Below, in pieces: positions 1,139-55,466 of a stretch of 64,000 nucleotides of DNA. The notes below the pieces were generated by a model. The model did no database searches and had not been told where the DNA came from. It saw nothing but the letters and a program-made list of their open reading frames with translations. The translations under genes were made by a program, and so were the position numbers. The stretch comes from Candidatus Spongiisociaceae bacterium (GTDB lineage Bacteria > Actinomycetota > Acidimicrobiia > Spongiisociales > Spongiisociaceae), in NCBI GenBank assembly GCA_965202665.1, contig OZ241841.1, positions 1,536,001 through 1,600,000 on the forward strand. Direction: 5' to 3'. Position 1 is the first letter of the stretch; each line of letters opens with the position of its first letter.

Positions 1139-2099
1139 GGGGCCGATACTGGAGGTGCGGGGCCTGTCCAAAACCTACCGGGTGCGGCGTTCGGTGGGCC
1201 GGGCGGAGTCGGTGCGGGCGGTGGAAGACGTTTCTTTTGCGGTGGACCGGGCCCGGATGGTGGGGATCGTGGGGGAAAGCGGCTCCGGTAAAACCACCGT
1301 GGCCCGTTGCCTGCTCGGTTTGACCGAACCCACCGGGGGGGAAATTTTGCTCAACGGGCAGCCGCTGACGGGACTTTCCATCCGGCGCATGCGGCCCCAC
1401 CGCCGCCATCTGCAGATGGTCTTCCAAATGCCCCATTCCTCGTTCGACCCCACCCACGCCGTTGGCAGCGCGGTGCGCCAGCCGTTGCGCCGCCTGCGCC
1501 CCGACCTGTCCCGGGCGGAGCAGGAGGAGCGGTTGCGCTACGTGCTGGGGGCGGTCGGTTTGGCCGAGGAGCTGTGGGGCCGGAAACCGGCCGCGTTGAG
1601 CGGGGGGCAGTTGCAACGGGCGGCCATCGCCCGCGCCTTGGCCCCCGACCCGGATCTGGTGGTGTTGGACGAACCGACTTCCTCGTTGGACCTGAGCGTG
1701 CGGGGCGAGATTTTGACCCTGTTGCAGGATTTGCGGCAGCGGCTGTTGGCGGCTTTCGTGTTCATCTCGCATGATTTGGAGGTGGTCCGGGCCTGCTCCG
1801 ATGACCTGATCGTTATGTATCTGGGCCAGATCGTGGAACAGGGCCCGGCTGACGAAGTGTTCGACGAGCCCCGTCACCCGTACACGCAGGCTCTGGTGGC
1901 GGCCAGCCGGTTCGCAACGGACGGGCCCGCGCTGGCCCCCAAAGGCGAGCACGACCCTTCCTCGGGTTGCCGCCTGTTCCCCCGCTGCCCTTTGGCCGAG
2001 CCCGACTGCGTCGCCGACCAGTCTTTGCTCCCCATAAGCGACCACCGCCAAGTCCGCTGCTGGAAAGCCCCCGCCCCCCAGTCGGTCACCGGACGCTGA
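1128..2099 (+). CDS. Oligopeptide/dipeptide ABC transporter ATP-binding protein (DppF/OppF-like)
   Basis: GESGSGKT, LSGGQLQR, DEPTSSLD, HPYT and the GCRLFPRC motif. Confidence 0.92.
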   Translation: MMGEGPILEVRGLSKTYRVRRSVGRAESVRAVEDVSFAVDRARMVGIVGESGSGKTTVARCLLGLTEPTGGEILLNGQPLTGLSIRRMRPHRRHLQMVFQMPHSSFDPTHAVGSAVRQPLRRLRPDLSRAEQEERLRYVLGAVGLAEELWGRKPAALSGGQLQRAAIARALAPDPDLVVLDEPTSSLDLSVRGEILTLLQDLRQRLLAAFVFISHDLEVVRACSDDLIVMYLGQIVEQGPADEVFDEPRHPYTQALVAASRFATDGPALAPKGEHDPSSGCRLFPRCPLAEPDCVADQSLLPISDHRQVRCWKAPAPQSVTGR

Positions 2100-2754
2100 G
2101 CATCCGCCCCAAGGTTTCCCGATCCAGGTCGATGATGCCATCCACCAGCTCCGACAACTCACGAGCTACGCTGCGCCGGTTAGGGGTGGCGGCCACCACA
2201 TGGGCGCCTAAATCTTGGGCGGTGCGCACCGCCTCCGCCAAGTCCCGGTCGCCCGAAACTAAAACTGCGGTATCGAACACTCCCTGTCCTGCTAACCGCA
2301 CCAGATCCAAGGCGATCAGCGTATCCACCCCCTTCTGCCTCCGCTCAGGCCGAAACTCCCAATGCCGTCGGAACTCGCTGGTTAGATGATCCGGCCCAAT
2401 CCCCAGTTCCTTCGCCGTTTTTCGGAGTGCTTTGAGCAATGGCTGATCAAAAGCCTGCCTGTTCTCAGAGATGTGGCCTAGTCTCAGTCGGATACCCGGG
2501 ATTTGTCCCACCTGAGCTAAAAACCCGCGTTGGTTTTTAGCCAACTTGTGCTCTATGTGGAACGTGGCATCGTACCAATAGGCGCGGACGAAGACGCCGC
2601 TGACCGGGTTGTCGCAGTCAGCTAAATTCCGACACCAATCGGCTATCGCCTCAGCGTCAAGACGAGTCTGGGAGATCCTTTTGTTCAGGGTCCCCGCTCC
2701 CGAGGCTCTCAAGAACCCCACATCAATGAGGACCGCATAGCCGGAAAAGTTCAT
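2086..2754 (-). CDS. NYN-domain (LabA/DUF88, PIN-like) ribonuclease
   Basis: LIDVGFL, RAYWYDA, QKGVDTLIALD and LVSGDRDL carry the acidic NYN catalytic motifs. RBS AAGGAG lies at 2771-2766. Alternative GTG start at 2766. Confidence 0.88.
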   Translation of the reverse strand: MNFSGYAVLIDVGFLRASGAGTLNKRISQTRLDAEAIADWCRNLADCDNPVSGVFVRAYWYDATFHIEHKLAKNQRGFLAQVGQIPGIRLRLGHISENRQAFDQPLLKALRKTAKELGIGPDHLTSEFRRHWEFRPERRQKGVDTLIALDLVRLAGQGVFDTAVLVSGDRDLAEAVRTAQDLGAHVVAATPNRRSVARELSELVDGIIDLDRETLGRMLSVR

Positions 2755-2771
2755 TTTTTCCGCCACTCCTT

Positions 2772-2803
2772 AAAAAAGGGGGACCCCTTCGTGAAGGGGT
2801 CCC
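2772..2803 (-). terminator. Intrinsic terminator directly before the NYN RBS
   Basis: On the - strand: GGGACCCCTTC-AC-GAAGGGGTCCC-CC-TTTTTT, followed by AAGGAG. Confidence 0.75.
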
Positions 2804-2964
2804 GGTTCACTTTTACGGCGGGGCCCGAAGGGAACCCGCCATTCCAAACGGGGAACCCTTTGAAAAGGGTTCCCCGTTTGTCTTTACAACGGGGGGGCTT
2901 TCCGCGGAAGCCCCCCCCAAAATGCACCCCCCAGGGGTGCGTACTAGCGCCGCTCAGGACGCCA
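2772..2964 (-). ncRNA. Candidate structured RNA (six-hairpin array), leader of the NYN gene, copy 1
   Basis: Consecutive stems at 2945-2964, 2924-2940, 2891-2918, 2845-2880 (16-bp perfect), 2817-2840 (cUUCGg loop on the - strand) and 2780-2803. Confidence 0.6.
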
Positions 2965-2970
2965 AGAGGT

Positions 2971-3000
2971 ATTATAAGCATCCCCTCCGCATCTTGTCAA
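2971..3000 (-). promoter_or_regulatory. Consensus sigma70 promoter driving the hairpin RNA and NYN gene
   Basis: TTGACA (3000-2995), 18-nt spacer, TATAAT (2976-2971). Confidence 0.75.
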
Positions 3001-3137
3001 ATGAGGATTGCCCCGGGCGGGATGAATGTTCCTAGCCGGGACCGATCGCGTTGCCGGGCCGGCTTTGTTCCTCGACGGACGCCCACTTGCCCCGTAGCGG
3101 ATACCAGACGGGTGGGTATCCAGGTAGGATGCTTTTG

Positions 3138-3350
3138 ATGATGGGTGATGCTGCAACTGCGGCTGATCGGTACGCCCCGAGCGATTGGGTGGACGATCCG
3201 GTCTCCGATGCCTACTTGGCGGAAGTCGCCGAGGCTTCCGAACGCGGCGAGTTCGCGGCCGAGATAGCCGACGCCGTCGAGCGACTGGAGGCCGCGTTGC
3301 CTGATGGCCGGCGGATCGTGGGCCCGCCTTGGCGCATAGTCGGGTCATAG
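3138..3350 (+). pseudogene. Small ORF, possibly the N-terminal remnant of a RelE/ParE-like toxin
   Basis: PVSDAYLAEV...AEIADAVERL...GPPW loosely resembles the N-terminus of RelE/gp49-like toxins. TAGGAT lies 7 nt upstream of the ATG. Confidence 0.3.
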
Positions 3351-3395
3351 GCTAAGCCGGGATAGGGTCCCCGCGAGCCCGCGGATATGCTGATT

Positions 3396-3497
3396 AAAGA
3401 GAAGGGACCCCTGGGTAAAGGGGTCCCTCTTACTTTACAACGGGGGGCCTTTTCCGCGGAAGGCCCCCCCAAAATGCACCCCCCAGGGGTGCGTTCA
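3396..3497 (-). ncRNA. Candidate structured RNA, copy 2 (three hairpins, no downstream ORF)
   Basis: Shares CTTTACAACGGGGGG...CCGCGGAAG...AAAATGCACCCCCCAGGGGTGCGT with copy 1. Ends in the stem AGGGACCCCT/AGGGGTCCCT (3403-3428) and a U-rich tail. Confidence 0.55.
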
Positions 3498-3503
3498 AGC
3501 CCC

Positions 3504-3531
3504 ATTATGCATCCCTTTCGCATTTTGTCAA
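3504..3531 (-). promoter_or_regulatory. Sigma70-like promoter of RNA copy 2
   Basis: TTGACA (3531-3526), 16-nt spacer, CATAAT (3509-3504). The spacer is homologous to that of the copy 1 promoter. Confidence 0.6.
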
Positions 3532-3749
3532 ACGTAGATTTACGCCCTTGCTCCTCCGTTCCGTTGTTTCCGCCGCGACGTTCCGGTTGGCGGTTGGCCG
3601 GCGAGAATGGGGGGTGGGGTTTTGAATTGGGCGGGGGCGGGTTAGGATGGGGGCATGCCGTGCGCGCCTAATGCCCGATGTCGAATGTCACCTGCCGGGG
3701 GTGGGTGAGTTGGACTATGGCGGGGGAATGATGGGCGCGGGAAAGGCAA

Positions 3750-4904
3750 ATGGGCGAAACCGTCGGGTCGGTCACGACCCAGTTTTACACTTTCGGGAGC
3801 GAAGAGGAACCGTTCGTATTTGAAAACGGCGGGTCGTTGCCCGAGGTCACTTTGGCCTACGAGGTTTACGGGGAGCTCAACTCCAAGCGGGACAACGCCA
3901 TCCTGCTTTTCCACGCCCTGACCGGCAGCCACCACGCCGCCGGCTACAACCCGTCCGTGCCGGGGGCGGGCGACCGTTGGACCGACGAGTTGCACACCGG
4001 CTGGTGGGACGAATTCATCGGCCCCGCCCGTTCGCTTAACACCGACAAGTTTGCGGTCATCTGCGTCAACTGGGTGGGGCACTGCTACGGTTCCACCGGC
4101 CCCGCCTCCCCCAACCCGGCCACCGGCCAACCGTACGGGTCCGCTTTCCCCCAAGTTTCGGTGGGCGACATCGTCCGCTCCCAGTTCCGCTTGCTGGACC
4201 ATCTGGGCGTGCAACGGCTGCATGCGGTGGTGGGGGCCAGCGTGGGGGGGATGATGTGCCTGGACGCGGCCGTCCGTTTCCCGGACCGGGTGCGTTTCAT
4301 CACTCCCATCGCGGCCGGACTGCGGGCCACCGACCTGCAGATCATCCACAACTTTGAGCAGATCAACGCCATTCGCAACGACCCGCACTGGAACGGCGGC
4401 GACTACTACCGGGGATCCCCGCCCGACGCCGGGTTGGCCCTGGCCCGGATGATCGGGCACAAAACTTTCGTGTCTTTGGATCAGATGCAGGCCCGGGCGC
4501 GGGCGGAAGTGGATGCGGACGAGGAACGGGTGCGCCTTCCCCTGGAAAGCTACATGTGGCACCAGGGGCAGAAGTTCGTGCTCCGTTTCGACGCCAACGC
4601 CTACCTGCGGGCCATGCTGGCTTGGCAGGACTTCGACCTGTACGCCGAGGCGGAACGCCGGGGAATGACCGTGCCGGAAATGCTGTCCGGCGGGGCCCAC
4701 CAGTATCTGGTGTTTTCCATCGACTCCGATGTCTGCTTCTATCACGAGGAGCAGGGGGAGATGGTGGAGGCCCTGAAGGCGGCGGCCCTTCCCCTCAACT
4801 GGATCACCGTCCACTCCGAAAACGGCCATGACGCGTTTCTGCTGGAACCGCACCTGTTCGAGCCGCATCTGCGCTACCACTTCGAGTCGGAGGGACTCTG
4901 CTGA
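3750..4904 (+). CDS. metX: Homoserine O-acetyltransferase
   Basis: HALTG, GASVGG nucleophile elbow, GHDAFLLE; adjacent to metY. Confidence 0.92.
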   Translation: MGETVGSVTTQFYTFGSEEEPFVFENGGSLPEVTLAYEVYGELNSKRDNAILLFHALTGSHHAAGYNPSVPGAGDRWTDELHTGWWDEFIGPARSLNTDKFAVICVNWVGHCYGSTGPASPNPATGQPYGSAFPQVSVGDIVRSQFRLLDHLGVQRLHAVVGASVGGMMCLDAAVRFPDRVRFITPIAAGLRATDLQIIHNFEQINAIRNDPHWNGGDYYRGSPPDAGLALARMIGHKTFVSLDQMQARARAEVDADEERVRLPLESYMWHQGQKFVLRFDANAYLRAMLAWQDFDLYAEAERRGMTVPEMLSGGAHQYLVFSIDSDVCFYHEEQGEMVEALKAAALPLNWITVHSENGHDAFLLEPHLFEPHLRYHFESEGLC

Positions 4905-21325: not shown

Positions 21326-22825
21326 TTATCCCTCCAGTAGAGGTGGGAGGCGGTGGTTCCAGGGGCGGGCGTTTTCCAGTTGGGAGGCTAGGCGAATAAG
21401 CAGCGACTCTTCTCCGTAGCGGGCGGTGAACTGCACTCCTATGGGCAGGCCGTCCGCCCAATGCAGGGGCACGCTCATCGACGGTTGGCCGGTGGCGTTC
21501 CACAGGGGAGTGTTGGGAATGACGTCCAAAGAACGGGCGGCGGCTTTTTTGACGGCCAGCCGAACCGCCGTCCGGCCCGGCATCCGCCCCAGCGTCTGCA
21601 AGGCCCGCAACTGCCGCTCCGACGGGTCCGCCGCTCCGCTCACCCAGGGCGGCCCGGCGATGGTTGACTCCGCGAAAATGTCGTATTCGTCAAAGAAAGG
21701 GGCCACCCCCCGGCCGATGTTCTTCACGTATTCAATGGCTTCCGCCAAAGAGGGGGCATCCAAACGCCGCCCGATTTGCCCCAGCGCCCAGTTGGCCGCC
21801 TCGAACATTTCCCCGGTCGGTTTTCGTCCCGCCTCCCGCCCGGCGGCGGTGATGTTGCGGGCCAGGTCGGCCGCTACCATCGTCGTCATCGCCCGTCGCA
21901 ACGGCCCCGCGTCTATCACCGGGCGGGCCTCCGACACCCGATGTCCCAACTCCTCCAGCAGCTGGGCCGTTTTCTCCACCGCCCGCGCGCATTCGCCGTC
22001 CATTTTGGAGGCCAGCATCGGTTCGGCGGAAAAGGCGATGCGCAACACCCCCGGCGGGCGCCCCGCCTCTTCCAGAAAAGGCCGTTCGGGCGGCGGCGGG
22101 AAATAGGGGGCCCCCGGATCGGGGCCGGAGGCGATGTCCAATAGGGCGGCGCTGTCGTGCACGGTGCGGGTCAAAGCATGATCGACGGACATTCCGAACC
22201 ACCCTTCCGCGGCGTGAGGCCCCTTCGGAGTGCGGGCCCGGGTGGGTTTCAGGCCGAACAGCCCGCACATTGAGGCCGGAATGCGAATGGATCCGCCCCC
22301 GTCGCTGCCGTGCGCGGCCGGAACGTAACGGGCGGCCGTCGCCGCCCCCGCCCCGCCGCTGGAACCGCCCGGTGAACGGTCCGTATCCCATGGGTTGCGG
22401 GTGGGGCCTTGTTGGGAGGAGCGGGTGTCGGGCGAAGACCCGAACTCCGGGGAGGCGCTTTGCCCGACGATCAGCAACCCGGCCGCTTTGTAGCGGGCCA
22501 CCAGGGCCGAATCCCCTTCGGCGATCACATCCCGGCGCATAGCCGACCCCAACGTATTGGGCATCCCGGCCACCGTCTGCCCCATATCTTTTATCAGAAA
22601 CGGAACCCCGGCTACCGGGGAGGCGGGCAGGGGGCGTTCCGCCTCCCGCAAAGCTTGTTCGTAGCGCCGGGTCCGCACCGCATTCAGATCCGGTTCGTAA
22701 CGTTCGATCTGGCCCATGGCGGCGGTGACCGCCTCCCGCGGATGGACTTGGCCGGAGGCGATCATTTCCCCCAGGCCCACCGCGTCCGTCTCCAGAATTT
22801 CCGGGAGGGTCCGTTGCTTTTCCAT
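21326..22825 (-). CDS. Amidase (amidase signature family)
   Basis: [27 protein letters not shown]. Confidence 0.92.
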
Positions 22826-41727: not shown

Positions 41728-43407
41728 GTGGTGAACGATGTGCGGGGCGGGGCTTATCGTACCGCGGCCGCGGTTTTGGGGGCGCTGGCCGAGTTGGGAA
41801 TGAGGACGGTGTTCGTCTCGCCCGGTTCCCGTTCGGCTCCCCTGGCGGCCTCCGCCGATGCTATGGCCGGTTTGGATGTCCGTATGATGTTGGACGAGCG
41901 TTGCGCCGGGTTCGCCGCTTTGGGGACGGCCGCCGCCTCCGGGCGGATGACCGGGCTGATCTGCACCTCCGGTTCGGCGGGGGCCCATTACCTGCCGGCC
42001 GCGGTGGAAGCCAACCGGGCCCGTATCCCCCTGGCTCTTCTAACCGCCGACCGCCCCCCCGGTTTTTTGGAACGGGACGCCCCGCAGACCATCGACCAAT
42101 CCAACCTGTTCGGAGCGCAGGTGCGGTCCTTCCTCGGCCTGCCCGTAGCCCACGAGGCGGAGCCGGGGGAGGCGGCCCGTCTGGTCTATGAGGCGGCCCG
42201 GGCCGGGTTGCCGCCCAACGCCGGGCCGGTGCACGTCAACCTGCCGTTCGCCAAGCCTTTGGAGCCGCCGCCCGAATGGGCGCCCGCCCCCCGCCCCGCC
42301 GGGGACGGAGAACCGCCGGAGGAGCCGGCCCCGCCCGCTCCGGAGTCGGTGGAGAAGATGCGCCGCTTCGCCGGGGAGGGGCGGCGGGGGCTGGTGGTAG
42401 CCGGGCCGAGGAGAGTCGGGCTGGCGGAGCGGGCCGCCCTGGCGGCGTGGGCGGCGGCGGCCGGATGGCCGATAGCGGCCGACCCGCTGTCCGGGTTGCG
42501 CACCGGCCCTTGCCCGCAGGTGATTTCCACCGGGGAGATGCTGGCGGGCGATGACCGGTTCGCCGCCGCCCACCGCCCGCAGGCCGTGTTGCGGGTGGGC
42601 GGAATCCCCACCGGCCGCCGCACCCAGCAGTGGCTGGAATCTTTGGAATGCCCGCAGTTGATACTCGATCCCGACCGGTGGTGGACCGCCCCCGGCCCGC
42701 AGACGGTGTTGCGGGACCCCCTGCCCGGTTTGCTGGCCGGGGCGCCGGCGGGGGCGGCGGACGGGGCTTGGGGGGAGGCTTGGCGGGAAGCCGACCGGGA
42801 AGCTTCCGTCCGCAGGCGGGAGGAGCGGCGGTCGCATCCGGATACGGAACCGGCCTTGGCGGCGGCGGTTCTGGAAAGGTCGGAGACGGTGTGGGTTGGG
42901 GGGAGTATGCCGGTCCGTCACTTGGATCTGATGATGGAAGCCGGCTCAGGGACGGCGGTGATGGGCGCCCGGGGGGCGTGCGGCATCGACGGCTCCGTCG
43001 CCGCCGCCGCCGGGGCCTCCTTGGGGACGGGAAAGCGGGTGACGGCCCTGATGGGCGACCTGGCTTTTCTGCATGATTTGGGTTCCCTTCCGGCGGCCGC
43101 CCGCATGGGGGCGGAGTTGACGGTGGCGGTGTTGGATAACGGGGGCGGGGCCATCTTCGGCATGTTGCCCATCGCCCGCTCCCCGGGAGTGGATTTGGAG
43201 CGGTTGTTCACTTTTCCCCATCATTTGGATTTGACGGAGGCCGCCTCCGGGCTGGGGGCGCGGGTGAGGCGGGCCGGAACGCTTGATATGCCGGGGGTTT
43301 TGGCGCAGGCGGCGGAGGAGGGCGGGACGTGGGTGGTGGTGGCGGAAACCGATCCCGGCCAGATGCGAGCCGTCTACCAACGACTGACCGGGGGTTGGCG
43401 GGAATAA
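41728..43407 (+). CDS. menD: SEPHCHC synthase
   Basis: SPGSRSAPL, DER.AGF.ALG, TADRP, GIDG, GDLAFLHD, DNGGGAIF. Confidence 0.92.
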   Translation: MVNDVRGGAYRTAAAVLGALAELGMRTVFVSPGSRSAPLAASADAMAGLDVRMMLDERCAGFAALGTAAASGRMTGLICTSGSAGAHYLPAAVEANRARIPLALLTADRPPGFLERDAPQTIDQSNLFGAQVRSFLGLPVAHEAEPGEAARLVYEAARAGLPPNAGPVHVNLPFAKPLEPPPEWAPAPRPAGDGEPPEEPAPPAPESVEKMRRFAGEGRRGLVVAGPRRVGLAERAALAAWAAAAGWPIAADPLSGLRTGPCPQVISTGEMLAGDDRFAAAHRPQAVLRVGGIPTGRRTQQWLESLECPQLILDPDRWWTAPGPQTVLRDPLPGLLAGAPAGAADGAWGEAWREADREASVRRREERRSHPDTEPALAAAVLERSETVWVGGSMPVRHLDLMMEAGSGTAVMGARGACGIDGSVAAAAGASLGTGKRVTALMGDLAFLHDLGSLPAAARMGAELTVAVLDNGGGAIFGMLPIARSPGVDLERLFTFPHHLDLTEAASGLGARVRRAGTLDMPGVLAQAAEEGGTWVVVAETDPGQMRAVYQRLTGGWRE

Positions 43408-43483
43408 GGCGGCGGCGGACCTAAGAAATCCCTATCATCCAGGGGTTTTTTTATCCCCGAATGGGCGGGCTGGGGGGATTTAC

Positions 43484-43512
43484 TTGACAAATTAGGGGGG
43501 GGGGGGTAGCGT
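43484..43512 (+). promoter_or_regulatory. Promoter with poly-G spacer (paralog 1, 17-bp spacer)
   Basis: TTGACA-AATTA-G12-TAGCGT. Confidence 0.75.
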
Positions 43513-43598
43513 TTTTCCCTGTTGGGCTTTACGGCGTGTGAGGTTGCCCGCCCGATGGCCTGCGTGGTTAAAGAAAATCCTGAGGAAGGAGGATGTAA

Positions 43599-46500
43599 AT
43601 GTCGGTTCGCGTGTCGGGGAAGGTTTGGCTTATAGGATTGTTGGTGTTGGGTTTGACGGCGAGTTTGCTGGGTGCGGCTCCGCCGGGTGCGGTGGGGACG
43701 CATGGGGATGATGCGGATGTGGATTATGAGCCATCGTATTCGGCCTGCGTGGGGGCGGCGACGGAGTCTTTCGGGTTTGAGGACACGGAAGGATCGTTCG
43801 CGGAGGAGGCTATCAATTGTTTGGCGCATTATGGGATCACCACCGGCCGGTCGGCGACGATGTTCGCTCCCAACGATTCGGTGTTGCGGTGGCAGATGGC
43901 CCTGTTTTTGGCGAGGGCGGCCGCGGCGGCGGGGATCGTGTTGGCGAACCCGGCTACCGATCAGGGTTTCACGGATGTTGGGGGAGTGTCGGGGGAGGCC
44001 CGTAACGCTATCAACGGTTTAGCGGCGGCGGGGATTATGCCCGGCACGTCGCAGACGACGTTTAGTCCGAATAGTTCGGTGACGCGTGGTTCCATGGCTG
44101 TGTTGTTGGATGCTTTCCTGGCGCGGGCGACGTTGGGGGCGGGGGCGTTTGGGGGTGAGATTGAGAAGCATTCGGATATAGAGGTGGATAATTTCAATGT
44201 GTTTAGCGATATTGATGGGGTGTCGTTGAATACGTATAATGCGATTTATCGTATTTATGAGGTGGGGGTGACGCAGGGGGTGGGTGATCATCAGTTCGGT
44301 CCGGGTCGTAACGTGACAAGGGCGCAGATGGCGGCCTTCATCACCCGGGCCTTTGCGCACACCGTAGCCCGTCCGGCCGGGGTGTCTATTCAGGCGGAGA
44401 AAGATTCGGTGTTGGGGGAGTCGTCGGTGCAACTTATTGTGTCGGTGCGGGATGCGATGTTTCAGCCGGTGGTGGATGCGTCGGTGGATGTGTTCCGTTC
44501 CACCGACCCTGACAACGCTCTGAAGGACGACGGGACTTGCGATACAGCCAGTGTTAGTCAGGTGGCTGGTATTGGCCGGGCGGCGTGTGAGGTGGATACG
44601 GGGGATGAAACAACGGACGCGGCGGGGGATGTTACCGCGTTGCAGTTGCAGGTGTCGGATGCGGATGTGACGGTGTGGGCGTGGACCGGGGACCGGGCTG
44701 ACAAGTTTGATTCCGATGACACCACCGCCGCCCAGCTGACCGTCGGTTTCTCCAAGGCGGCCAGCCAGTTGCTGGTGACCGACAATTTGGAGGAGGGGCA
44801 GACCCATCTGCAGTTTGGGGAAACAGCCACGCTGACGGTGCAGGTGGCTAATGAGGATGATGAGCCGGTGGCGGAGAAGGATGTGGGGGTGAAGGTCGCC
44901 CAGGTTACCACTCCGGATGTGAGCAAGACGACGGAAACTAACTCGTCAACCAACACCTATACCACTGATGCGTCGGGCAAGTTTCAGTTGTCGTTTACCC
45001 AGACCGATCCCAGTTCCGGTGATGATGAGGACGCAACGGTGGTGGTTACTTTGAGCGAACCGTCCTCTTATACACTCCAGGATGAAGACGGCGAGGCATT
45101 CGCCTCCAAAACCTACACTTGGTCCGACGAGGCGGGGGTTCCGGCCAAGTTGGTGTTGGAAACGCGGCAGGAGTACGCCGAAGCGTCCGATGAGGGCCGG
45201 GGGGCGGTGGCGGCGGTTACCGCCACTTTGACCGACCAGTTCGGCAACCCGGTGCGCGGCCAGCGAATCCACTTCTGGTCCGACGACCCAGCCGGAGTGG
45301 GCCAGAAATCGGACGATATTGCTCTGGAATGGGTGCGGAACGCAATCACTTTGGCCGCCACCGGTACTGTTAATTCGGCCAACGTCCAGTGGCGGCGAGT
45401 GGGTTTCCGCATTTTGCGGAATTTGATGCCCCAGGTTACTTACACCCGTACCACCAACCGGTCGGGTGCGGCCACATTGTCCTACAGCCGGGATGCGACG
45501 GGGGGCGTGATCGAGACGATCCGGGCCCGGTTGGTGCGGGGTGAGGACGACGCCACCACGAGGAGCGAGAGGTGGCCGTGGAGCCGCGCCAGCGAAGCGG
45601 AGGATCCCCGAGACCTGGTGAGCGAGAGGGCGACCTTTTATTGGGCCGAAGAGTTGGACGACGACGATTCGGCGAAAGGCCGGATTTTGGTGAAAGACGC
45701 CGATGCCCGCCGGCTGGTGTTCGGAGCTGATGACGGCCGGGTGAGAATGATCACCTACGACGGCAACGACCAGTTCCGAACGAACGGGACCCCAATCGTG
45801 ATGTCCGAGTTCGAAAAGTATCTGAAAGGCACCGCCGCTCATATCATCATCAACGAATATTCCGATACTGCGAGCGACGTCAGTTCGTTCGACACGACGG
45901 CGGAATGGCCGCAGGTGGATATGAGCAAGATTCCGGTGCCGCAGGCATCGGGACGGACGGTGGAGGCCGTTGGCAACGGCATGGTCATTTTAGCGGCCGA
46001 CGGCGGCGCTATCGTGGTCGGTTCTTTCTGGGAGAACAACTACGCCGGTGCGGTGTATGTCTTCGACGGGGTGGACGATGACGCCCCTCAGAAGTTGACC
46101 GCCCCCACTCCGCAACCCACCACTTTCACCGATAGCCATGTCACTAACCATTGGTATAACAAGCCGTGGGAATTCAACCTGCCGACTTCGGGAGGGCATT
46201 TCGGCTATGCGGTGGACATCCGGGGCGACACTATCGTGGTGGGCGAACCGGGCCGCCTCAGCACCCATACGATCAACAAAGGAACCTCCGACCCTCGGAC
46301 TGGGGTGGCAACCGACGGAGCGGTTTACGTTTACACCAAGAACGCTTCCGGCACCTGGGAGTTGGACGCCACGTTGACGTTGGCGGACTTCGTGGGCTCG
46401 GAGAACGGCCGGATCACCGGCGGTTGGGACGCGGGAATGGAGCTGGGCCGGTCAGTGGTGGTTTCCGAAGATGAAACCACCATCGCCGCCTCCGCACCCC

Positions 46501-47447
46501 GGTTTTTAACTAACCAGAACAGCCGACGAATGGGCGGGGTGCACATTTTCAAACGGCCCGATCAAACTGGCCGGAACACGGCAACCATCGGCAAATGGGA
46601 TGATGCTACGGGGGCCGCAACCTCCCGACTGGATGTGTCTACCAATTATATAAACACCAATAAAAACAGCGGAAACCGGACCTTGGCCCGCGATAGGGAG
46701 TTGGCTATTTCTCGAGATGGAAGCACGGTGGTAGTGGGCAACAGCTGGTTTAGCCGGGTGTTGGATAATGTGAAACATGATTGGGTGGGAGGGGCGTTTA
46801 TCTACACCGCCCCATCCGGCGGATGGGTAGCCGCCGCGCAATATGAGGAAGACACCGTCTTGCAGTCCCCCACCCCCTACTCCGGGGAGAGAATGGCCGT
46901 GTCGCTGGGGGTGTCCGCTGATGGAAGCACGGTGGTGGTGTCGGCTCACTTCCGGCCCGAGTTGATGCGACAAGGCAAGGTGCTGATCTACGAGAGGCCC
47001 GACCAGAGCGGCCGTTCCGCGGGCGACAAATGGGGCGACGCCGACAACCTGATGGACCCCAGCGCCGTTTTGACGCATCCTTTGGAGCATCCGGATAAGC
47101 CCGACGGTTGCTTGGCTTCGGCCGGTCCGGTGCTGGGATGCAACATTGGGGAGACTTTCGGACAATGGGTGGACATCAACGATGCCGGCGACCGTATTCT
47201 GGCCGCCCACCCCGCCCGTACCGAAGGCCGCTATCTGGGTTCCACGCGTCTCTTCACCGAGCCGGCGGGCGGCTGGTCGACGGTCACCGCCGACAACCAG
47301 CCCTCTTCGGTGGAGTTCTTAGGGGCGGACCCCGGGGCTTTCGCGGGATGGCGAAACCATTTCGATCAAGACACCGGCGACATCTACATGATGGATTCCG
47401 ATCCCGACGCCAATGGCGCCGTCCGCGCCTACAAAATAACGCCTTAG
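43599..47447 (+). CDS. Surface (S-layer) protein paralog 1: SLH domains, Ig-like region, FG-GAP-like beta-propeller
   Basis: Signal peptide; SLH motifs (FAPNDSVLRWQMA, FGPGRNVTRAQMA); repeats of FGYAVDI..DTIVVG and GAVYV. Confidence 0.85.
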   Translation: MSVRVSGKVWLIGLLVLGLTASLLGAAPPGAVGTHGDDADVDYEPSYSACVGAATESFGFEDTEGSFAEEAINCLAHYGITTGRSATMFAPNDSVLRWQMALFLARAAAAAGIVLANPATDQGFTDVGGVSGEARNAINGLAAAGIMPGTSQTTFSPNSSVTRGSMAVLLDAFLARATLGAGAFGGEIEKHSDIEVDNFNVFSDIDGVSLNTYNAIYRIYEVGVTQGVGDHQFGPGRNVTRAQMAAFITRAFAHTVARPAGVSIQAEKDSVLGESSVQLIVSVRDAMFQPVVDASVDVFRSTDPDNALKDDGTCDTASVSQVAGIGRAACEVDTGDETTDAAGDVTALQLQVSDADVTVWAWTGDRADKFDSDDTTAAQLTVGFSKAASQLLVTDNLEEGQTHLQFGETATLTVQVANEDDEPVAEKDVGVKVAQVTTPDVSKTTETNSSTNTYTTDASGKFQLSFTQTDPSSGDDEDATVVVTLSEPSSYTLQDEDGEAFASKTYTWSDEAGVPAKLVLETRQEYAEASDEGRGAVAAVTATLTDQFGNPVRGQRIHFWSDDPAGVGQKSDDIALEWVRNAITLAATGTVNSANVQWRRVGFRILRNLMPQVTYTRTTNRSGAATLSYSRDATGGVIETIRARLVRGEDDATTRSERWPWSRASEAEDPRDLVSERATFYWAEELDDDDSAKGRILVKDADARRLVFGADDGRVRMITYDGNDQFRTNGTPIVMSEFEKYLKGTAAHIIINEYSDTASDVSSFDTTAEWPQVDMSKIPVPQASGRTVEAVGNGMVILAADGGAIVVGSFWENNYAGAVYVFDGVDDDAPQKLTAPTPQPTTFTDSHVTNHWYNKPWEFNLPTSGGHFGYAVDIRGDTIVVGEPGRLSTHTINKGTSDPRTGVATDGAVYVYTKNASGTWELDATLTLADFVGSENGRITGGWDAGMELGRSVVVSEDETTIAASAPRFLTNQNSRRMGGVHIFKRPDQTGRNTATIGKWDDATGAATSRLDVSTNYINTNKNSGNRTLARDRELAISRDGSTVVVGNSWFSRVLDNVKHDWVGGAFIYTAPSGGWVAAAQYEEDTVLQSPTPYSGERMAVSLGVSADGSTVVVSAHFRPELMRQGKVLIYERPDQSGRSAGDKWGDADNLMDPSAVLTHPLEHPDKPDGCLASAGPVLGCNIGETFGQWVDINDAGDRILAAHPARTEGRYLGSTRLFTEPAGGWSTVTADNQPSSVEFLGADPGAFAGWRNHFDQDTGDIYMMDSDPDANGAVRAYKITP

Positions 47448-47469
47448 TCGCTTCACGCAACCCAACACG

Positions 47470-47510
47470 ACAGGAAACCCCCCGCACCGAAGCGGGGGGC
47501 TTTCCTGTTT
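47470..47510 (+). terminator. Intrinsic terminator after paralog 1
   Basis: CAGGAAACCCCCCGC...GCGGGGGGCTTTCCTG-TTT. Confidence 0.8.
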
Positions 47511-47552
47511 AAACCAAACTTCAGGGGATGGGGGCGGGTTGGAGGGATTGAC

Positions 47553-47579
47553 TTGACAAATTGGGGGGGGGGGTAGCGT
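47553..47579 (+). promoter_or_regulatory. Promoter with poly-G spacer (paralog 2, 15-bp spacer)
   Basis: TTGACA-AATT-G11-TAGCGT. Confidence 0.7.
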
Positions 47580-47671
47580 TTTAGTCTGTTGGGCTTTACG
47601 GCGTGTGAGGTTGCCCGCTGAGTGGTCTGCGTAGTTAACGAAAAATCCTGGATTCGGAAGGAGGAATGATA

Positions 47672-50600
47672 ATGGCGGCTCGTGTGTTGGGTAGGGTTTG
47701 GCTTGTAGGATTGTTGGTGTTGGGTCTGGTGGCCAGTTTGTTGGGTGCGGCTCCGCCGGGTGCGGTGGGGACGCATGGGGATGATGCGGATGTGGATTAT
47801 GAGCCGTCGTATTCGGCCTGTGTGGGGGCGGCGACGGAGTCTTTCGGGTTTGAGGACACGGAAGGGTCGTTCGCGGAGGGGGCGATTGATTGTTTGGCGC
47901 ATTATGGGATAACGACCGGTCGGTCGGCGACGATGTTTGCTCCCAATGATTCGGTGTTGCGGTGGCAGATGGCCCTGTTTTTGGCGAGGGCGGCCGCGGC
48001 GGCGGGGATCGTGTTGGCGAATCCGGCTGCTGATCAGGGGTTTACGGATGTGGGGGCGGTGTCGGGGGAGGCCCGTAACGCTATCAACGGTTTAGCGGCG
48101 GCGGGAATCATGCCCGGCATGTCGCAGACGACGTTTAGTCCGAATAGTTCGGTGACGCGTGGTTCCATGGCTGTGTTGTTGGACGCTTTCCTGGCGCGGG
48201 CGACTCCGGGGGCGGGGGCGTTTGGGGGTGAGATTGAGAAGTATTCGGATGTGATGGTGGATAGTTCCGATGTTTTCAATGATATTAGTGGGGTGTCGTT
48301 GAATACTTATAATGCGATTTATCGTATTTATGAGGTGGGGGTGACGCAGGGGGTGGGGGATCATCAGTTCGGGCCGGGTCGTAATGTGACGCGGGCGCAG
48401 ATGGCGGCGTTTATCACGAGGGCGTTTGCGCATACGGTGGCTCGTCCGGCGGGGGTGTCGATTCAGGCGGAGCGGGATTCGGTGTTGGGGGAGTCGTCGG
48501 TGCAGTTGATTGTGTCGGTGCGGGATGCGATGTTTCAGCCGGTGGTGGATGCGTCGGTGGATGTGTTCCGTTCCACCGATCCCGACAACGCTTTGAAGGA
48601 CGACGGCACATGCGATACAGCTAGTGTTGGTCAGGTGGCTGGTATTGGCAGGGCGGCGTGTGAGGTGGATACGGGGGATGAGACGACTGATGCGGCGGGG
48701 GACGTTACCGCGTTGCAGTTGCAGGTGTCGGATGCGGATGTGACGGTGTGGGCGTGGACCGGGGACCGGGATGACAAGTTCGATTCCGACGACACGGCTT
48801 CGGCGCAGTTGACCGTCGGTTTCTCTAAGGCGGCCAGCCAGTTGTTGGTGACCGACAATTTGGAGGAGGGGCAGACCCATTTGCAGTTCGGGGAAACGGC
48901 TACGTTGACGGTGCAGGTGGCTAATGAGGATGATGAGCCGGTGGCGGAGAAGGGGGTGGGGGTGAAGGTCGCCCAGGTTACCACTCCCGATGTGAGCAAG
49001 ACGACGGAGACCAACTCGTCCACCAATACCTATACCACTGACGCGTCGGGCAAGTTTCAGTTGTCGTTCACCCTGACCGATCCCAGCTCCGGCGACGATG
49101 AGGACGCGACGGTGGCGGTTACTTTGAGCGAACCGTCCTCTTATTCCCTCCAAGACGAAGACGGCACCGCATTCTCCTCCAAGACCTACACTTGGTCCGA
49201 TGATGTGGGGGTTCCGGCCAAGTTGGTGTTGGAAACGCAGAATATGTGGGCCGAGGCGTCGGATGAGGGCCGGGGGGCGGTAGCGGCGGTTACCGCCACT
49301 TTGACCGACCAGTTCGGCAACCCGGTACGGGGACAGCGAATCCACTTTTGGTCCGACGACCCAGCCGGGGTAAGTGAGAAATCTGAAGATGCCCTGTTGG
49401 CCAGGGTGCGGACCACCGCCACCAGCGGCAGCCAAAATTCCCACAAGGATTTTCACTTCACCGTGTTGCATGATTTGATCGGCGAGGCTCAGTACGCGCG
49501 TACTACCAACCGGGCGGGTAGGGCTGTATTGACCTACAACCGGGATGCGACGGCGGGTGTCATTGAGACGGTGCGGGCCCGAATAATACGGGGAGCGGAC
49601 GACGCCAAAAGAGTAAGCGACGACGACCCTGATCTGTTGAGCGAGAAAGTGTCTTTCTTTTGGGCTGAAGAGTTGGACGACGACGATTCGGATTCTGGTC
49701 GAATTTTGGTGAAGGAGGCGGACGCCCGGCGGGTGGTGTTTGCGGCCCAGGATGGCCGGGTGAGAATGATCACCTACGATGGCAACGACCAGTTCCGGCG
49801 GGCGGGCGTTCCGATAACGAGTGCGGATTTTGAAAAATATCTGAAAGACACCGCCGCCCATATTACGGTCAACATTTATTCCGACACCGCAGGCGGCGTC
49901 AGTTCGTTTGACGCGACGGCGGAATGGCCGTCTACCGATCTGACCGAAATTCCGGTTCCGACGGCGTTGGGTCAGACCGCCACCGAACTCCACAACGGAA
50001 TGATTCATTACGCGGTAGATAGTGACACGATCGTGGTTGGTTCTTTCATGGATAACAACTACGCCGGCGCGGTATACGTTTACGACGGGGTGGACGATGA
50101 AACACCCCAGAAGTTGACCGCTCCCACCCCGCAACCCACCACTTTCACTGGGGATTGGCGTACCGCTGCTTGGAACCTCAAGCCGTGGTCTCTCAACCTG
50201 GCGATTTCGGGAGGGCAGTTCGGCTATGCGGTGGATATCCGGGGCGATACCATCGTGGTGGGAGAGCCCGGTCGTTTGAGCAACAGTGTTATAGCCGCTT
50301 CCCGCGTTCGTAATGGAGTCACCCAGGCTAGCATCCGGAATGGGCGGGCGGCCGACGGCGCGGTTTACGTTTACACCAAGAACAGTTCCGGAACCTGGGA
50401 GTTGGACGCCACTTTGACGGCCAACGGCTCCACTTTGCGCGGGGGGCGGATACCGTTGAACGACTGGGGGGCGAGAGGGTTTCAGATGGGCAGGGCGGTG
50501 GCGGTCTCCGGCGACGAAACCCACATTGCCGCTAGCACTCCCGGCTTCCTAACCGTCCAAAGGCGGATAGGCGGGGCCTTCGTGTTTGAACGGCCCGACC

Positions 50601-51463
50601 AAACCGGACGGAACACGGCAACCAACGGCAAATGGGACGATGATAACGGAGCCAACTCGGACCGCTTTGAGCCGGGAGCCGACAACGTGAACCAAAACCA
50701 AAATCGTTGGAGCGAGCTTTTCGGGGCGGACCGGGAGTTGGCGATCTCGAACAACGGGCTGACGGTGGTGGTGGGGGCCCACTACTTCAACCGAACAGTG
50801 GAGGGGGTGCGATACACCTGGGGAGGAGGGGCGTATATCTTCACCAGCGCTGACTGGAATGACGGCACGGCAAACATTTATGAACAGGACGCCGTCCTGA
50901 ACTCCCCCAACCCGTACACGTCTGAGGGGTTTGGGGCGTCGGTGGCGGTGGACGACGACGGGTCGACGGTGGTGGTTTCCGCCAACTTCCGTCCCAACAT
51001 GTTACGACGGGGCAAAGCCCTGATCTTCGAACGTCCCGACCAGTCCGGACGTTCCGCCAACAACCAATGGGAGAACGAGATGAATCCCACCGCTGTCCTC
51101 ACGGCCCCGGATCATCCAGACGCGCCTGATAATTGCACGGCCGCAGCCGGCCCGGTGCTGGGATGCAACATCGGAGAGGTGTTCGGACAGTGGGTGGACA
51201 TCACCGGCGACGGCGGGAAAATCTTAGCCTCCCGGGGTTTCCGGACCGAGGGCGCCCTGCGGGGTTCAAGCCTTATCTTCACCGAACCGGCCGGCGGTTG
51301 GTCGACGGTCACCGCCGACCGGCAACCCTCCAATGTGGAATATCTGGGCTCCGAACTGGAATCGCTACTTGGATGGCGCAACCATTTCGACCAAGCCAAC
51401 GGCAAGTTTTACGTCTATGAGGAACCCGAGGGCGGGATACTCATATACCAGATAACGCCTTAG
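47672..51463 (+). CDS. Surface (S-layer) protein paralog 2
   Basis: N-terminal ~560 aa nearly identical to paralogs 1 and 3; RBS GGAGG. Confidence 0.85.
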   Translation: MAARVLGRVWLVGLLVLGLVASLLGAAPPGAVGTHGDDADVDYEPSYSACVGAATESFGFEDTEGSFAEGAIDCLAHYGITTGRSATMFAPNDSVLRWQMALFLARAAAAAGIVLANPAADQGFTDVGAVSGEARNAINGLAAAGIMPGMSQTTFSPNSSVTRGSMAVLLDAFLARATPGAGAFGGEIEKYSDVMVDSSDVFNDISGVSLNTYNAIYRIYEVGVTQGVGDHQFGPGRNVTRAQMAAFITRAFAHTVARPAGVSIQAERDSVLGESSVQLIVSVRDAMFQPVVDASVDVFRSTDPDNALKDDGTCDTASVGQVAGIGRAACEVDTGDETTDAAGDVTALQLQVSDADVTVWAWTGDRDDKFDSDDTASAQLTVGFSKAASQLLVTDNLEEGQTHLQFGETATLTVQVANEDDEPVAEKGVGVKVAQVTTPDVSKTTETNSSTNTYTTDASGKFQLSFTLTDPSSGDDEDATVAVTLSEPSSYSLQDEDGTAFSSKTYTWSDDVGVPAKLVLETQNMWAEASDEGRGAVAAVTATLTDQFGNPVRGQRIHFWSDDPAGVSEKSEDALLARVRTTATSGSQNSHKDFHFTVLHDLIGEAQYARTTNRAGRAVLTYNRDATAGVIETVRARIIRGADDAKRVSDDDPDLLSEKVSFFWAEELDDDDSDSGRILVKEADARRVVFAAQDGRVRMITYDGNDQFRRAGVPITSADFEKYLKDTAAHITVNIYSDTAGGVSSFDATAEWPSTDLTEIPVPTALGQTATELHNGMIHYAVDSDTIVVGSFMDNNYAGAVYVYDGVDDETPQKLTAPTPQPTTFTGDWRTAAWNLKPWSLNLAISGGQFGYAVDIRGDTIVVGEPGRLSNSVIAASRVRNGVTQASIRNGRAADGAVYVYTKNSSGTWELDATLTANGSTLRGGRIPLNDWGARGFQMGRAVAVSGDETHIAASTPGFLTVQRRIGGAFVFERPDQTGRNTATNGKWDDDNGANSDRFEPGADNVNQNQNRWSELFGADRELAISNNGLTVVVGAHYFNRTVEGVRYTWGGGAYIFTSADWNDGTANIYEQDAVLNSPNPYTSEGFGASVAVDDDGSTVVVSANFRPNMLRRGKALIFERPDQSGRSANNQWENEMNPTAVLTAPDHPDAPDNCTAAAGPVLGCNIGEVFGQWVDITGDGGKILASRGFRTEGALRGSSLIFTEPAGGWSTVTADRQPSNVEYLGSELESLLGWRNHFDQANGKFYVYEEPEGGILIYQITP

Positions 51464-51485
51464 CCGCTTCACGCAACCCAACACG

Positions 51486-51525
51486 ACGGGAAGCCCCCCG
51501 CACCGAAGCGGGGGGCTTCCTGTTT
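51486..51525 (+). terminator. Intrinsic terminator after paralog 2
   Basis: GGAAGCCCCCCGC...GCGGGGGGCTTCC-TGTTT. Confidence 0.8.
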
Positions 51526-51568
51526 ACCCCAAACTTCAGGGGATTGGGGCGGGTTGGGGCGGATTGAC

Positions 51569-51597
51569 TTGACAAATTAGGGGGGGGGGGGTAGCGT
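51569..51597 (+). promoter_or_regulatory. Promoter with poly-G spacer (paralog 3, 17-bp spacer)
   Basis: TTGACA-AATTA-G12-TAGCGT. Confidence 0.75.
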
Positions 51598-51689
51598 TTT
51601 GGACTGTTGGGCTTTACGGCGTGTGAGGTTGCCCGCTGAATGACCTGCGTAGTTAACAAAAAAATCCTGGATTCGGAAGGAGGATGTAA

Positions 51690-54600: not shown

Positions 54601-55466
54601 TGTTTGAACGGCCCACCAGTGCTGCCAACGGCAAATGGGACGATGACAACGGGGCCAACTCGGACCGCTTTGAGCCGGGAGCCGACAACGTGAACGAAAA
54701 CCAAAATCGTTGGAGCGAGCTTTTCGGGGCGGACCGGGAGTTGGCGATCTCGAACAACGGACTGACGGTGGTGGTGGGGGCCAACCTTTTCAACCGAACA
54801 GTGGAGGGGGTGCGATACACCTGGGGGGGAGGGGCGTATATCTTTACCAGCACCAACTGGAATGACGGCGCGGCGGACATTTATGAACAGGACGCCGTCC
54901 TGAACTCCCCCAACCCGTTCTGGGCTGAGAAGTTTGGCCGGTCGGTGGCGGTGGACGATGACGGGTCGACGGTGGTGGTTTCCTCCAACTTCCGTCCCAA
55001 CATGTTGCGACGGGGCAACGCGCTGATCTACGAACGTCCAGCCGGACCTCTAGACAACGACCAATGGGAGGACGAGATGAATCCCACCGCTATCCTCACC
55101 GCCCCGGATCATCCAGACGCGCCTGATAATTGCACGGCCGCGTTGGGCCCGGTGCTGGGATGCAACGTTGGGGAGGTGTTCGGACAGTGGGTGGACATCA
55201 CCGGCGACGGCGAGAAGATCTTAGCCTCCCGGGGTTACCGGACCGAGGGCGCCCTGCGGGGTTCAACCCTTCTCTTCACCGAACCGTCCGGCGGCTGGTC
55301 GACGGTCACCGCCGACCGGCAACCCTCCAATGTGGAATATCTGGGTTCCGAACTGGAGGGGCTGTTTGGATGGCGCAACCATTTCGACCAAGCCAGCGAC
55401 AACGACGATATTTACTCCTATGAGGATCCCGAAGGCGGGATACTCATATACCAGATAACGCCTTAG
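51690..55466 (+). CDS. Surface (S-layer) protein paralog 3
   Basis: Same architecture as paralogs 1 and 2; C-terminal half closest to paralog 2. Confidence 0.85.
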   Translation: MSVRVSGKVWLVGLLVLGLTASLLGAAPPGAVGTHGDDADVDYEPSYSACVGAATESFGFEDTEGSFAEGAIDCLAHYGITTGRSATMFAPNDSVLRWQMALFLARAAAAAGIVLANPAADQGFTDVGAVSGEARNAINGLAAAGIMPGVSQTTFSPNSSVTRGSMAVLLDAFLARATLGAGAFGGEIEKYSDIEVDNFNVFSDIDGVSLNTYNAIYRIYEVGVTQGVGDHQFGPGRNVTRAQMAAFITRAFAHTVARPAGVSIQAEKDSVLGESSVQLIVSVRDAMFQPVVDASVDVFRSTDPDNALNDDGRCNAASVGQVAGIGRAACEVDTGDETTDAAGDITSLQLQVSDADVTVWAWTGDRADKFDSDDTTAAQLTVGFSKAASQLLVTDNLEEGQTRLQFGETATLTVQVANEDDEPVAEKGVGVKVAQVTTPDVSKATETNSSTNTYTTDATGKFQLSFTQTDPSSGDDEDATVVVTLSEPSSYSLQDEDGTAFSSKTYTWSDDVGVPTKLVLETRQMWAEASEEGRGAVASVTATLTDQFGNPVRGQRIHFWSDDPAGVSEKSEDALLTRVRTTAASDANNIHRAFPFTVLHNLVGEAQYARTTNRAGAATLTYNRDATAGVIETVRARMIRGEDDAKRESGDDPDLLSDKVSFFWAEELDDDDSDSGRILVKEEDARRVVFAAEDGRVRMITYDGNDQFRRAGAPITSADFEKYLKDTAAHITVNIYSDTAGGVSSFDATAEWPSTDLPKIPVPTALGRTVTRLHNGMIHYAVDGGTIVVGSFLENNYAGAVYVYDGVGDETPQKLTAPTPQPTTFTGDWTTTAWNVKPWSLNLATSGGQFGYAVDIRGDTIVVGEPGRLSNSVIAASRVRNGVTQTSIRNGRAADGAVYVYTKNSSGTWELDATLTANGSTLRGGRIPLNDWGARGFQMGLAVAVSGDETHIAASTPGFLTVQRRIGGAFVFERPTSAANGKWDDDNGANSDRFEPGADNVNENQNRWSELFGADRELAISNNGLTVVVGANLFNRTVEGVRYTWGGGAYIFTSTNWNDGAADIYEQDAVLNSPNPFWAEKFGRSVAVDDDGSTVVVSSNFRPNMLRRGNALIYERPAGPLDNDQWEDEMNPTAILTAPDHPDAPDNCTAALGPVLGCNVGEVFGQWVDITGDGEKILASRGYRTEGALRGSTLLFTEPSGGWSTVTADRQPSNVEYLGSELEGLFGWRNHFDQASDNDDIYSYEDPEGGILIYQITP

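Follow-up and report, generated by a model that had tools for sequence, protein, structure and literature searches.

The window analysed here, a 64,000-nucleotide stretch of contig OZ241841.1 (assembly GCA_965202665.1) from a Candidatus Spongiisociaceae bacterium, carries a gene for a predicted ribonuclease of the NYN family (PF01936) that lies behind a promoter, an array of RNA hairpins and a terminator-like hairpin. This NYN-RNA locus is real, conserved and apparently undescribed. Hairpin leaders of the same kind are found upstream of homologous genes in six phyla, and a second RNA copy, not followed by a gene, accompanies the locus in this genome. By analogy with AbiF and with type III toxin-antitoxin systems, we put the probability that the RNA inhibits the NYN nuclease, and that the pair works like those systems, at roughly 0.55.

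Organization of the NYN-RNA locus

Positions given below are those of the window; RNA copies A and B and the NYN gene are all on the minus strand. A preliminary description, made by a model from the sequence and its open reading frames (ORFs), had proposed a ToxIN-like order of elements with a NYN protein instead of a ToxN-type toxin, and this layout stands. Pfam gives NYN only, and the best fold matches are NYN domains. The predicted promoter A (2971..3000, TTGACA-18-TATAAT) matches the consensus at 12 of 12 positions, as had been claimed, and the interval 1500-4000 holds two promoter-like sites against a shuffle mean of 0.4. The predicted RNA copy A (2772..2964, about 190 nt), with ends placed from the promoter and the U-tract, folds at -113 kcal/mol over 2964-2772. 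The six adjacent stems announced for it are recovered as six hairpins within 2964-2780, with a minimum free energy (MFE) of -121 kcal/mol and a z-score of -5.4 that none of 200 shuffles attained. The plus strand folds equally well (-121.8), so that any argument about the strand must rest on something else. The cUUCGg tetraloop, said to exist on the minus strand only, is not favoured: its letters are present in the hairpin called H5 below, but pairing in this register has a probability of 0.006 and costs 2.7 kcal/mol relative to the MFE.

Hairpin H1 (2945..2964) is optional, being absent from copy B and mostly lost from copy A of a related strain. H2 (2924..2940), with a C-rich arm, a 3-nt loop and a G-rich arm, is the repeat-type hairpin of the family; it is identical in copies A and B and takes the position of the family hairpin in anchored folds. 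H3 (2891..2917) occupies the position of the family's terminator hairpin, here with a degenerate tail after it. H4 (2845..2880) is the perfect 16-bp stem already reported and is lineage-specific. In a local alignment H5 (2815..2842), its linker and H6 resemble H3, its linker and H4, and H5-H6 look like an internal duplicate of H3-H4; H4-H6 together look like a lineage-specific extension. The terminator-like hairpin H6 (2772..2803) consists of a 10-bp stem (2803-2780), CC and U6 (2777-2772), a predicted terminator which departs from the proposed stem plus U6 by the two C's between stem and U-tract. Immediately 3' of the U-tract, a Shine-Dalgarno-like AAGGAG (2766..2771) precedes the NYN ORF, again in agreement with the preliminary description.

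The NYN gene (2086..2754) encodes 222 amino acids (aa) from ATG 2754 and matches PF01936 at 43.2 bits, against a cut-off of 24.2. ATG 2754 is most likely the start rather than GTG 2766, since the four closest homologues are 222 aa long and the related strain lacks 2 nt at 2754, breaking the GTG frame. The protein has an isoelectric point of 9.0 and an intact acidic motif (D15, D148, D173 and D175 in 226-aa numbering). Its AlphaFold2 model, at a predicted local distance difference test score of 92.5, contains a clade-specific helical insertion at about residues 100-140. Best fold matches are 2qip (VPA0982; Z 18.1, 161 residues, root-mean-square deviation 3.1) and the NYN domain of MARF1 (Z 15.6), and the top matches are all NYN domains, far ahead of other rows. 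A PIN-like NYN fold, a profile match above cut-off and the conserved acidic residues are thus all found in this protein.

A leader RNA conserved across homologues

A profile search with the protein returned 98 clusters at E <=1e-30 and 1,157 at 1e-10. Homologous loci were taken from 61 related genomes (28 with a match), from 80 of 97 confirmed genome loci and from 43 metagenome loci; removal of exact duplicates and of 7 loci without the N-terminal anchor left 123, of which 119 belong to the near clade and 4 are distant. By reading the upstream sequences, we assigned a leader RNA to 77 of the 119 near-clade loci, and the leader-bearing homologues span six phyla; the conserved structure that the preliminary description had proposed to look for upstream of homologues is therefore present, and it shows covariation. 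The leader comprises 2-5 hairpins with a period of 23-27 nt, each with a C-rich 5' arm, a G-rich 3' arm and mostly a GUU, AUU, GUUA or UUU loop, the last hairpin usually being followed by U's. Tandem repetition takes the form of degenerate hairpin repeats in the family and of an internal duplication in the window. Because H4-H6 look lineage-specific, the conserved unit is a core of 45-110 nt rather than the predicted RNA of about 190 nt. A strict -35/-10 pattern occurs upstream of 28 of the 77 leaders, whereas only 1 of 66 control windows and 3 of the 42 leader-less loci have one.

In an unfitted alignment of 61 leaders, double-sided changes affect all 14 modelled pairs, which none of 500 shuffles reaches, and covariation scores 0.347, where shuffles give 0.177 and slid partners do not exceed 0.22, figures that are biased in that the structure was drawn from the same sequences on which it was tested and that kin are not independent. 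The leader stems contain 37 G-U and 9 A-C wobbles, and control hairpins 131 and 151, respectively (Fisher p 2e-5, a significance that kinship inflates). This sense-strand G-U bias indicates that structure matters on the transcribed strand. Rfam gave 22 weak matches in the window, all far below gathering scores; a scan of the RNA units at 20 related loci gave no match. The predicted leader is an RNA motif absent from Rfam, found across phyla and tied to one nuclease family. Anchored folds reveal that copy A shares its H1-H2-H3 order with the units of the same-genus genome and with the sister clade, and as judged from these folds the window RNA is a divergent member of the family.

Loci without a leader fall into a few groups that nest among those with one in a quick, unrooted tree of 115 rows (support by the Shimodaira-Hasegawa-like approximate likelihood-ratio test only), which suggests that the leader was lost repeatedly. 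Eight short or frameshifted rows were dropped from this tree, and all 8 carry the leader. All 69 leader-bearing rows scored retain D15, K145 and D148, and the first of the catalytic aspartates is essential in the NYN protein of B. fragilis (10.1101/2024.04.08.588522). D15N together with K145R is found in 13 of 23 rows of the largest leader-less clade. The loci L003-L024 there represent a family-wide leader-less NYN in fixed synteny, possibly, given those 13 of 23 rows, an inactive and domesticated form. Two Dehalococcoidia genomes (L059/L113 and L081/L069) combine a leader-bearing NYN with a leader-less sister paralogue that has D66E, R174Q and E203D.

Fold z-scores fall below -2 at 56 of 76 leader loci and 2 of 42 leader-less loci, a comparison that was set aside as circular because the groups were defined by their hairpins. 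Leader-bearing proteins are more basic, with a median net charge of +1.5 against -7 for leader-less ones; this weak trend, clear in only 3 of 6 sister comparisons, is, like the linkage and the extra copies, at most an indirect sign that the RNA binds the protein.

Linkage of the RNA to NYN genes

Across 40 whole genomes (131 candidates scored per genome), the leader model matched 37 places in 32 genomes. Known NYN leaders account for 34 of the 37, and the other three each directly precede a distant NYN gene with a C-terminal extension, outside the training set. In 41 relatives the model matched three NYN leaders, one orphan leader and two chance sites. A class-wide search gave matches in 3 of 301 genomes, two of them already known. 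The genome matches L171 and L172, which fall in a coding region or low-complexity DNA, were rejected as chance, and so was a match at 22097-22159 of the window, inside an amidase-like coding sequence. The orphan leader (L206:3448-3539, minus strand, genome G002) is followed by a ribosome-binding site and an ATG and by no NYN ORF; the NYN orthologue of that genome is leader-less.

Among distant NYN genes, the locus L038:1612-2050 (G004) holds eight 54-nt tandem repeats between promoter and terminator and, on its predicted layout, is the most ToxI-like locus that we saw. On plasmids of Azospirillum and Sinorhizobium, weaker structures that resemble the leader lie upstream of distant NYN genes, and no leader was found at the Streptomyces-like NYN members examined. 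On a Kitasatospora plasmid (L211:2181-3118), a near-clade, leader-less NYN gene is translationally coupled to an upstream ORF of 100 aa, possibly a protein antitoxin that replaces the RNA.

Additional RNA copies and the other NYN genes of the genome

A second RNA copy, overlooked in the preliminary description, lies 530 nt upstream. The predicted RNA copy B (3392..3497) contains H2 (3492-3476), H3 (3469-3442), a terminator-like hairpin (3429-3402) and a U-rich tail. It is preceded by the predicted promoter B (3504..3531, TTGACA-16-CATAAT, 11 of 12 consensus positions). The whole unit (3531-3392) is 84% identical to copy A over 102 nt, and copy B folds with a z-score of -5.4. No recognisable gene follows it on the same strand. 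BLASTN of the 2.77-Mb genome found copies A and B only.

Both copies are kept in the related strain, in spite of 91 substitutions over about 1,650 nt. In its 16-bp H4 stem, two pairs have changed in a compensatory way, and two A-U pairs have become G-U as read on the minus strand. Among the alignment rows listed, letters matching H1 are inserted in copy B and H1 is mostly gone from copy A; in that strain H1 thus seems to belong to copy B rather than to copy A. In a same-genus genome, three tandem promoter-RNA units precede the NYN orthologue. Gene-less copies hence number one in this genome and two in the same-genus genome, and in these two genomes and the related strain they retain intact promoters and an unchanged H2.

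The genome has four NYN genes, each with two promoter-hairpin-U-tract units, and the placement of the units varies: upstream and sense in the window, divergent at C1:763k and C1:1,984k, downstream at C1:1,998k. The NYN gene at C1:763202-763825 (minus strand; L237/L257, and L256) has two divergent units here, the promoter of one overlapping the start of the gene; its counterpart in the same-genus genome has three. At C1:1983977-1984594 (plus strand; L241/L244, and L245), a full-length HEC-09-type NYN gene is accompanied by two divergent promoter-RNA-terminator units, four in the same-genus genome. The fourth NYN gene (C1:1998166-1998900, minus strand; L240/L263), missed by a genome-wide Pfam look-up, is followed by two such units; the second is duplicated together with the 3' end of the gene across an apparent transposase fragment, which we take to be IS481-like. 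The same downstream RNA recurs at 10 of the 12 loci of that clade shown, and of the remaining two, one carries a convergent unit of another kind and the other covers just the 5' fragment of a gene that is split. A scripted search of the divergent clade found such units at 5 of 19 loci, with as many as four at one locus; at several further loci, inspection by eye showed similar hairpins in antisense. Save some shared loop motifs, the sequences of the divergent and downstream RNAs are unlike that of the window RNA. An RNA that lies behind a gene or faces away from it cannot be its leader, and duplicated units with varied placement at all four NYN genes point to an RNA that acts in trans.

Two further sites in this genome, C1:445022 and C1:526680 (both minus strand; L242 and L243), each have a near-consensus promoter, then a long hairpin with interruptions and a U-tract; no NYN gene was noticed in their vicinity, and they are candidate orphan small RNAs.

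Relation to known systems

In type III families, a single promoter serves tandem RNA repeats, a Rho-independent terminator and a downstream endoribonuclease gene (PMC5086642). At the sequence level, the present locus has the same promoter-RNA-terminator-nuclease order as ToxIN/AbiQ, CptIN and TenpIN, with a repeat number that varies by locus. Unlike in these systems, the predicted toxin fold is NYN and not ToxN-like, the repeats, which have a period of about 25 nt, are short and degenerate, covariation supporting simple hairpins (under pseudoknot-free folding), and extra stand-alone RNA copies exist. In AbiF/RCd22, a HEPN toxin is paired with an upstream RNA antitoxin, and RCd22 works in cis and in trans (10.1101/2025.04.15.648962; PMC12737573). 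As in AbiF/AbiFr and C. difficile AbiF/RCd22, a promoter, a short hairpin-motif RNA and an intrinsic terminator precede an RNase gene reached by read-through, and no pseudoknot is needed. Unlike AbiF, a HEPN (Abi_2) protein, the protein here is NYN/PIN-like, and the RNA, in the window and at the RNA units of 20 related loci, has no match to RF03085. Toxicity and binding were demonstrated for AbiF; for the window NYN they are predictions. As both protein and RNA thus fall outside these families, the locus is not a ToxIN, CptIN, TenpIN or AbiF system, though its layout is type III-like.

HEC-09 (PADLOC PDLC04163), a single-gene defence candidate that occurs within defence systems, is a NYN protein too. 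The window protein matches it over residues 93-219 only (37 bits, E 5e-10), and a full-length match (184 bits, E 7e-55) is provided by the NYN protein of this genome with divergent RNA units. In contrast to HEC-09, the window NYN belongs to a separate clade with a helical insertion, and no RNA is mentioned for HEC-09 in the accessible text of 10.1101/2024.01.29.577857. The DUF3800-I to XI, drum and skipping-rope motifs are structured, terminated RNAs that accompany a single protein family, lie on either side of its genes in either orientation, and fold differently from clade to clade; NYN and LabA are absent from the main text that reports them, which in its accessible part gives no function for the DUF3800 RNAs (PMC5737381). 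The NYN-linked RNA units resemble them in being clade-specific and placed on either side, and differ in the protein family. NYN proteins of the LabA/DUF88 type (VPA0982, the MARF1 NYN domain, the CRISPR-associated NYN of B. fragilis) share the fold and the acidic motif of the window NYN, and the accessible texts of 10.1101/2024.04.08.588522 and PMC5499597 describe no dedicated RNA partner for them. A literature search found no NYN protein with an RNA antitoxin, subscription literature being thinly covered and a prior description possible.

A possible RNA-inhibited nuclease

The RNA-inhibited reading draws support from the layout, the conservation, the RNA-type covariation, the exclusive linkage to NYN genes, the gene-less copies and the intact catalytic motif. 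Transcription, binding, toxicity and trigger are extrapolated from AbiF/RCd22 and type III systems. Most transcripts would end at the terminator, so that the short RNA would exceed the protein, and little NYN messenger RNA and protein would be made, through read-through only. The NYN protein would recognise the repeated hairpins with their C-rich arm, short loop and G-rich arm, and binding of the RNA would keep the predicted nuclease inactive; the protein might also cut the single-stranded linkers and thereby release RNA units. Copy B would add RNA in trans and raise its dose. A stop of transcription, under stress or phage takeover, or loss of the locus would free the nuclease, since the RNA would be the first to decay. 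The outcome may be phage defence or mere self-maintenance of the module.

Several observations weigh against this reading, in addition to the bias of the covariation test. The family model scores the window copies at only 13 bits (E 0.12-0.14, the top two matches in 64 kb) and misses them in a genome-wide search. RNAalifold on a 15-sequence bridging set recovered only H3, with H1 and H2 misaligned. The gene-proximal unit of the closest relative has no clear U-tract, and 42 of the 119 near-clade loci have no leader or a degenerate one. Leader-less rows mostly keep the catalytic aspartates (10 of 23 in the largest clade, 16 of 16 in three smaller groups), which counts against the reading because an obligate toxin should not tolerate the loss of its RNA. 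Within the clade of the window NYN, every RNA lies upstream in sense orientation, and only this genus showed additional separate copies. The divergent and downstream RNAs come from other clades and have other sequences, and therefore argue by analogy. A plausible defence neighbour is present at only 7 of 42 leader-bearing loci (a count with no baseline rate for comparison), and viral contigs yielded no locus of the window clade by single protein, by alignment or by exact motif pattern. The HEC-09 NYN gave no phage protection (10.1101/2024.01.29.577857). In the light of these last three points, abortive infection, which the preliminary description had suggested, finds little support. Its proposal of a structured-RNA partner for the NYN protein fares better in part: the gene-less copies and the divergent and downstream units favour an RNA ligand over a plain leader.

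That plain leader is nevertheless the best-surviving alternative, though an unlikely one. The NYN protein would bind or cut the hairpins of its own nascent messenger RNA, or favour termination, and so limit its own level, copy B being a by-product of duplication. The leaders of RNase E and RNase III offer a precedent for such autoregulation. The invariable position in the window clade fits this idea, since the RNA ends just before the ribosome-binding site; moreover, the loop of the terminator hairpin is often that of the repeats, and in the MFE structure the U-tract can pair with the AAGG of the Shine-Dalgarno sequence. Several clades have lost the leader and kept an intact active site, which would be easy for a regulator. 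Against it stand the gene-less copies, which have kept their promoters and H2 in three genomes, and the NYN-linked units that are divergent or downstream.

We consider it rather less likely still that the RNA is a trans-acting partner (cofactor, scaffold or titrating decoy) of a non-toxic nuclease that tunes RNA turnover. The position-independent linkage in other NYN clades does recall the DUF3800, drum and skipping-rope RNAs (PMC5737381), neighbours are mostly metabolic genes, and RNA-less clades persist in fixed synteny. Yet the leader-bearing modules have a patchy, cross-phylum distribution, with single insertions in varied contexts, as would fit a mobile conflict module, and the 8 short or frameshifted rows are all leader-bearing, as expected if the toxin decays first, assembly errors being a possible contribution.

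That the palindromes act as DNA operators, or are dispersed repeats of the repetitive extragenic palindrome or miniature inverted-repeat transposable element type, is very improbable and largely refuted: the short, GC-rich arms and the equal folding of both strands would allow it, but the genome has two copies only, model matches fall at NYN genes (which also removes the genome-wide repeat that the preliminary description had named as a possible refutation), G-U wobbles favour the sense strand, and arm sequences vary with pairing kept. A CRISPR-like guide-RNA reading was rejected as well, the linkers being short and semi-conserved and the eight L038 repeats having no variable spacers.

Toxin-binding RNA antitoxins are known for ToxN-like proteins, to which AbiF, a HEPN protein and proposed Cas13 ancestor, was recently added. 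If the RNA-inhibited reading is true, the NYN locus would be a third, PIN-fold case, and RNA-caged ribonucleases would have arisen repeatedly; bacterial RNA-antitoxin systems would gain a new enzyme family. NYN proteins of the LabA/DUF88 type, listed as of unknown function (PMC5499597), would obtain a testable one. The minimal system is small, 45-50 nt of RNA and a 220-aa protein. More tentatively, and at slightly worse than even odds, many bacterial PF01936 NYN proteins may be the protein half of an RNA-controlled toxin class, hitherto unrecognised, with a clade-specific small terminated RNA upstream, divergent or downstream, sometimes multiplied for dosage. On that broader reading they would form a PIN-fold type III lineage independent of ToxN and HEPN, part of a large protein family that lacks a known function would receive one, and the inactivity of NYN candidates cloned without regard to their RNA could be explained. 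Even as a mere regulatory leader, the RNA would be an uncatalogued cross-phylum motif tied to one nuclease family.

Genomic context and additional observations

The window locus lies between a gene for an ABC-transporter ATPase and one for an alpha/beta-hydrolase, presumably a homoserine acetyltransferase. Between copies A and B, a possible ORF of 73 aa on the plus strand (3129..3350) is doubtful (GC at codon positions 0.73/0.51/0.72); it matches no family above cut-off in Pfam, PADLOC or NCBIfam and is probably outside the system. From 42 leader-bearing loci, 152 flanking ORF pieces were collected and 150 scanned, of which 14 match PADLOC; the named neighbours among 75 scanned in Pfam are mostly metabolic. 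No recurring partner protein ORF was found among the loci compared, hence no protein antitoxin was seen.

The viral sequences contained one distant NYN, without a leader match. In the lambdoid Escherichia phage ev099 (L217:1862-2846), a distant NYN gene directly follows cI and has a promoter to itself, together with an interrupted hairpin and a U-tract; this position corresponds to that of rexAB in lambda.

Elsewhere in the genome, four related ORFs of 434-441 aa (C1:1196732, 2445011, 2532881 and 456129) have similar AT-rich near-consensus promoters and probably form a dispersed mobile gene family. In the window, the interval 43001-55000 has a lower GC content and a strong, periodic positive GC skew of up to 0.36, which suggests a large repetitive gene.

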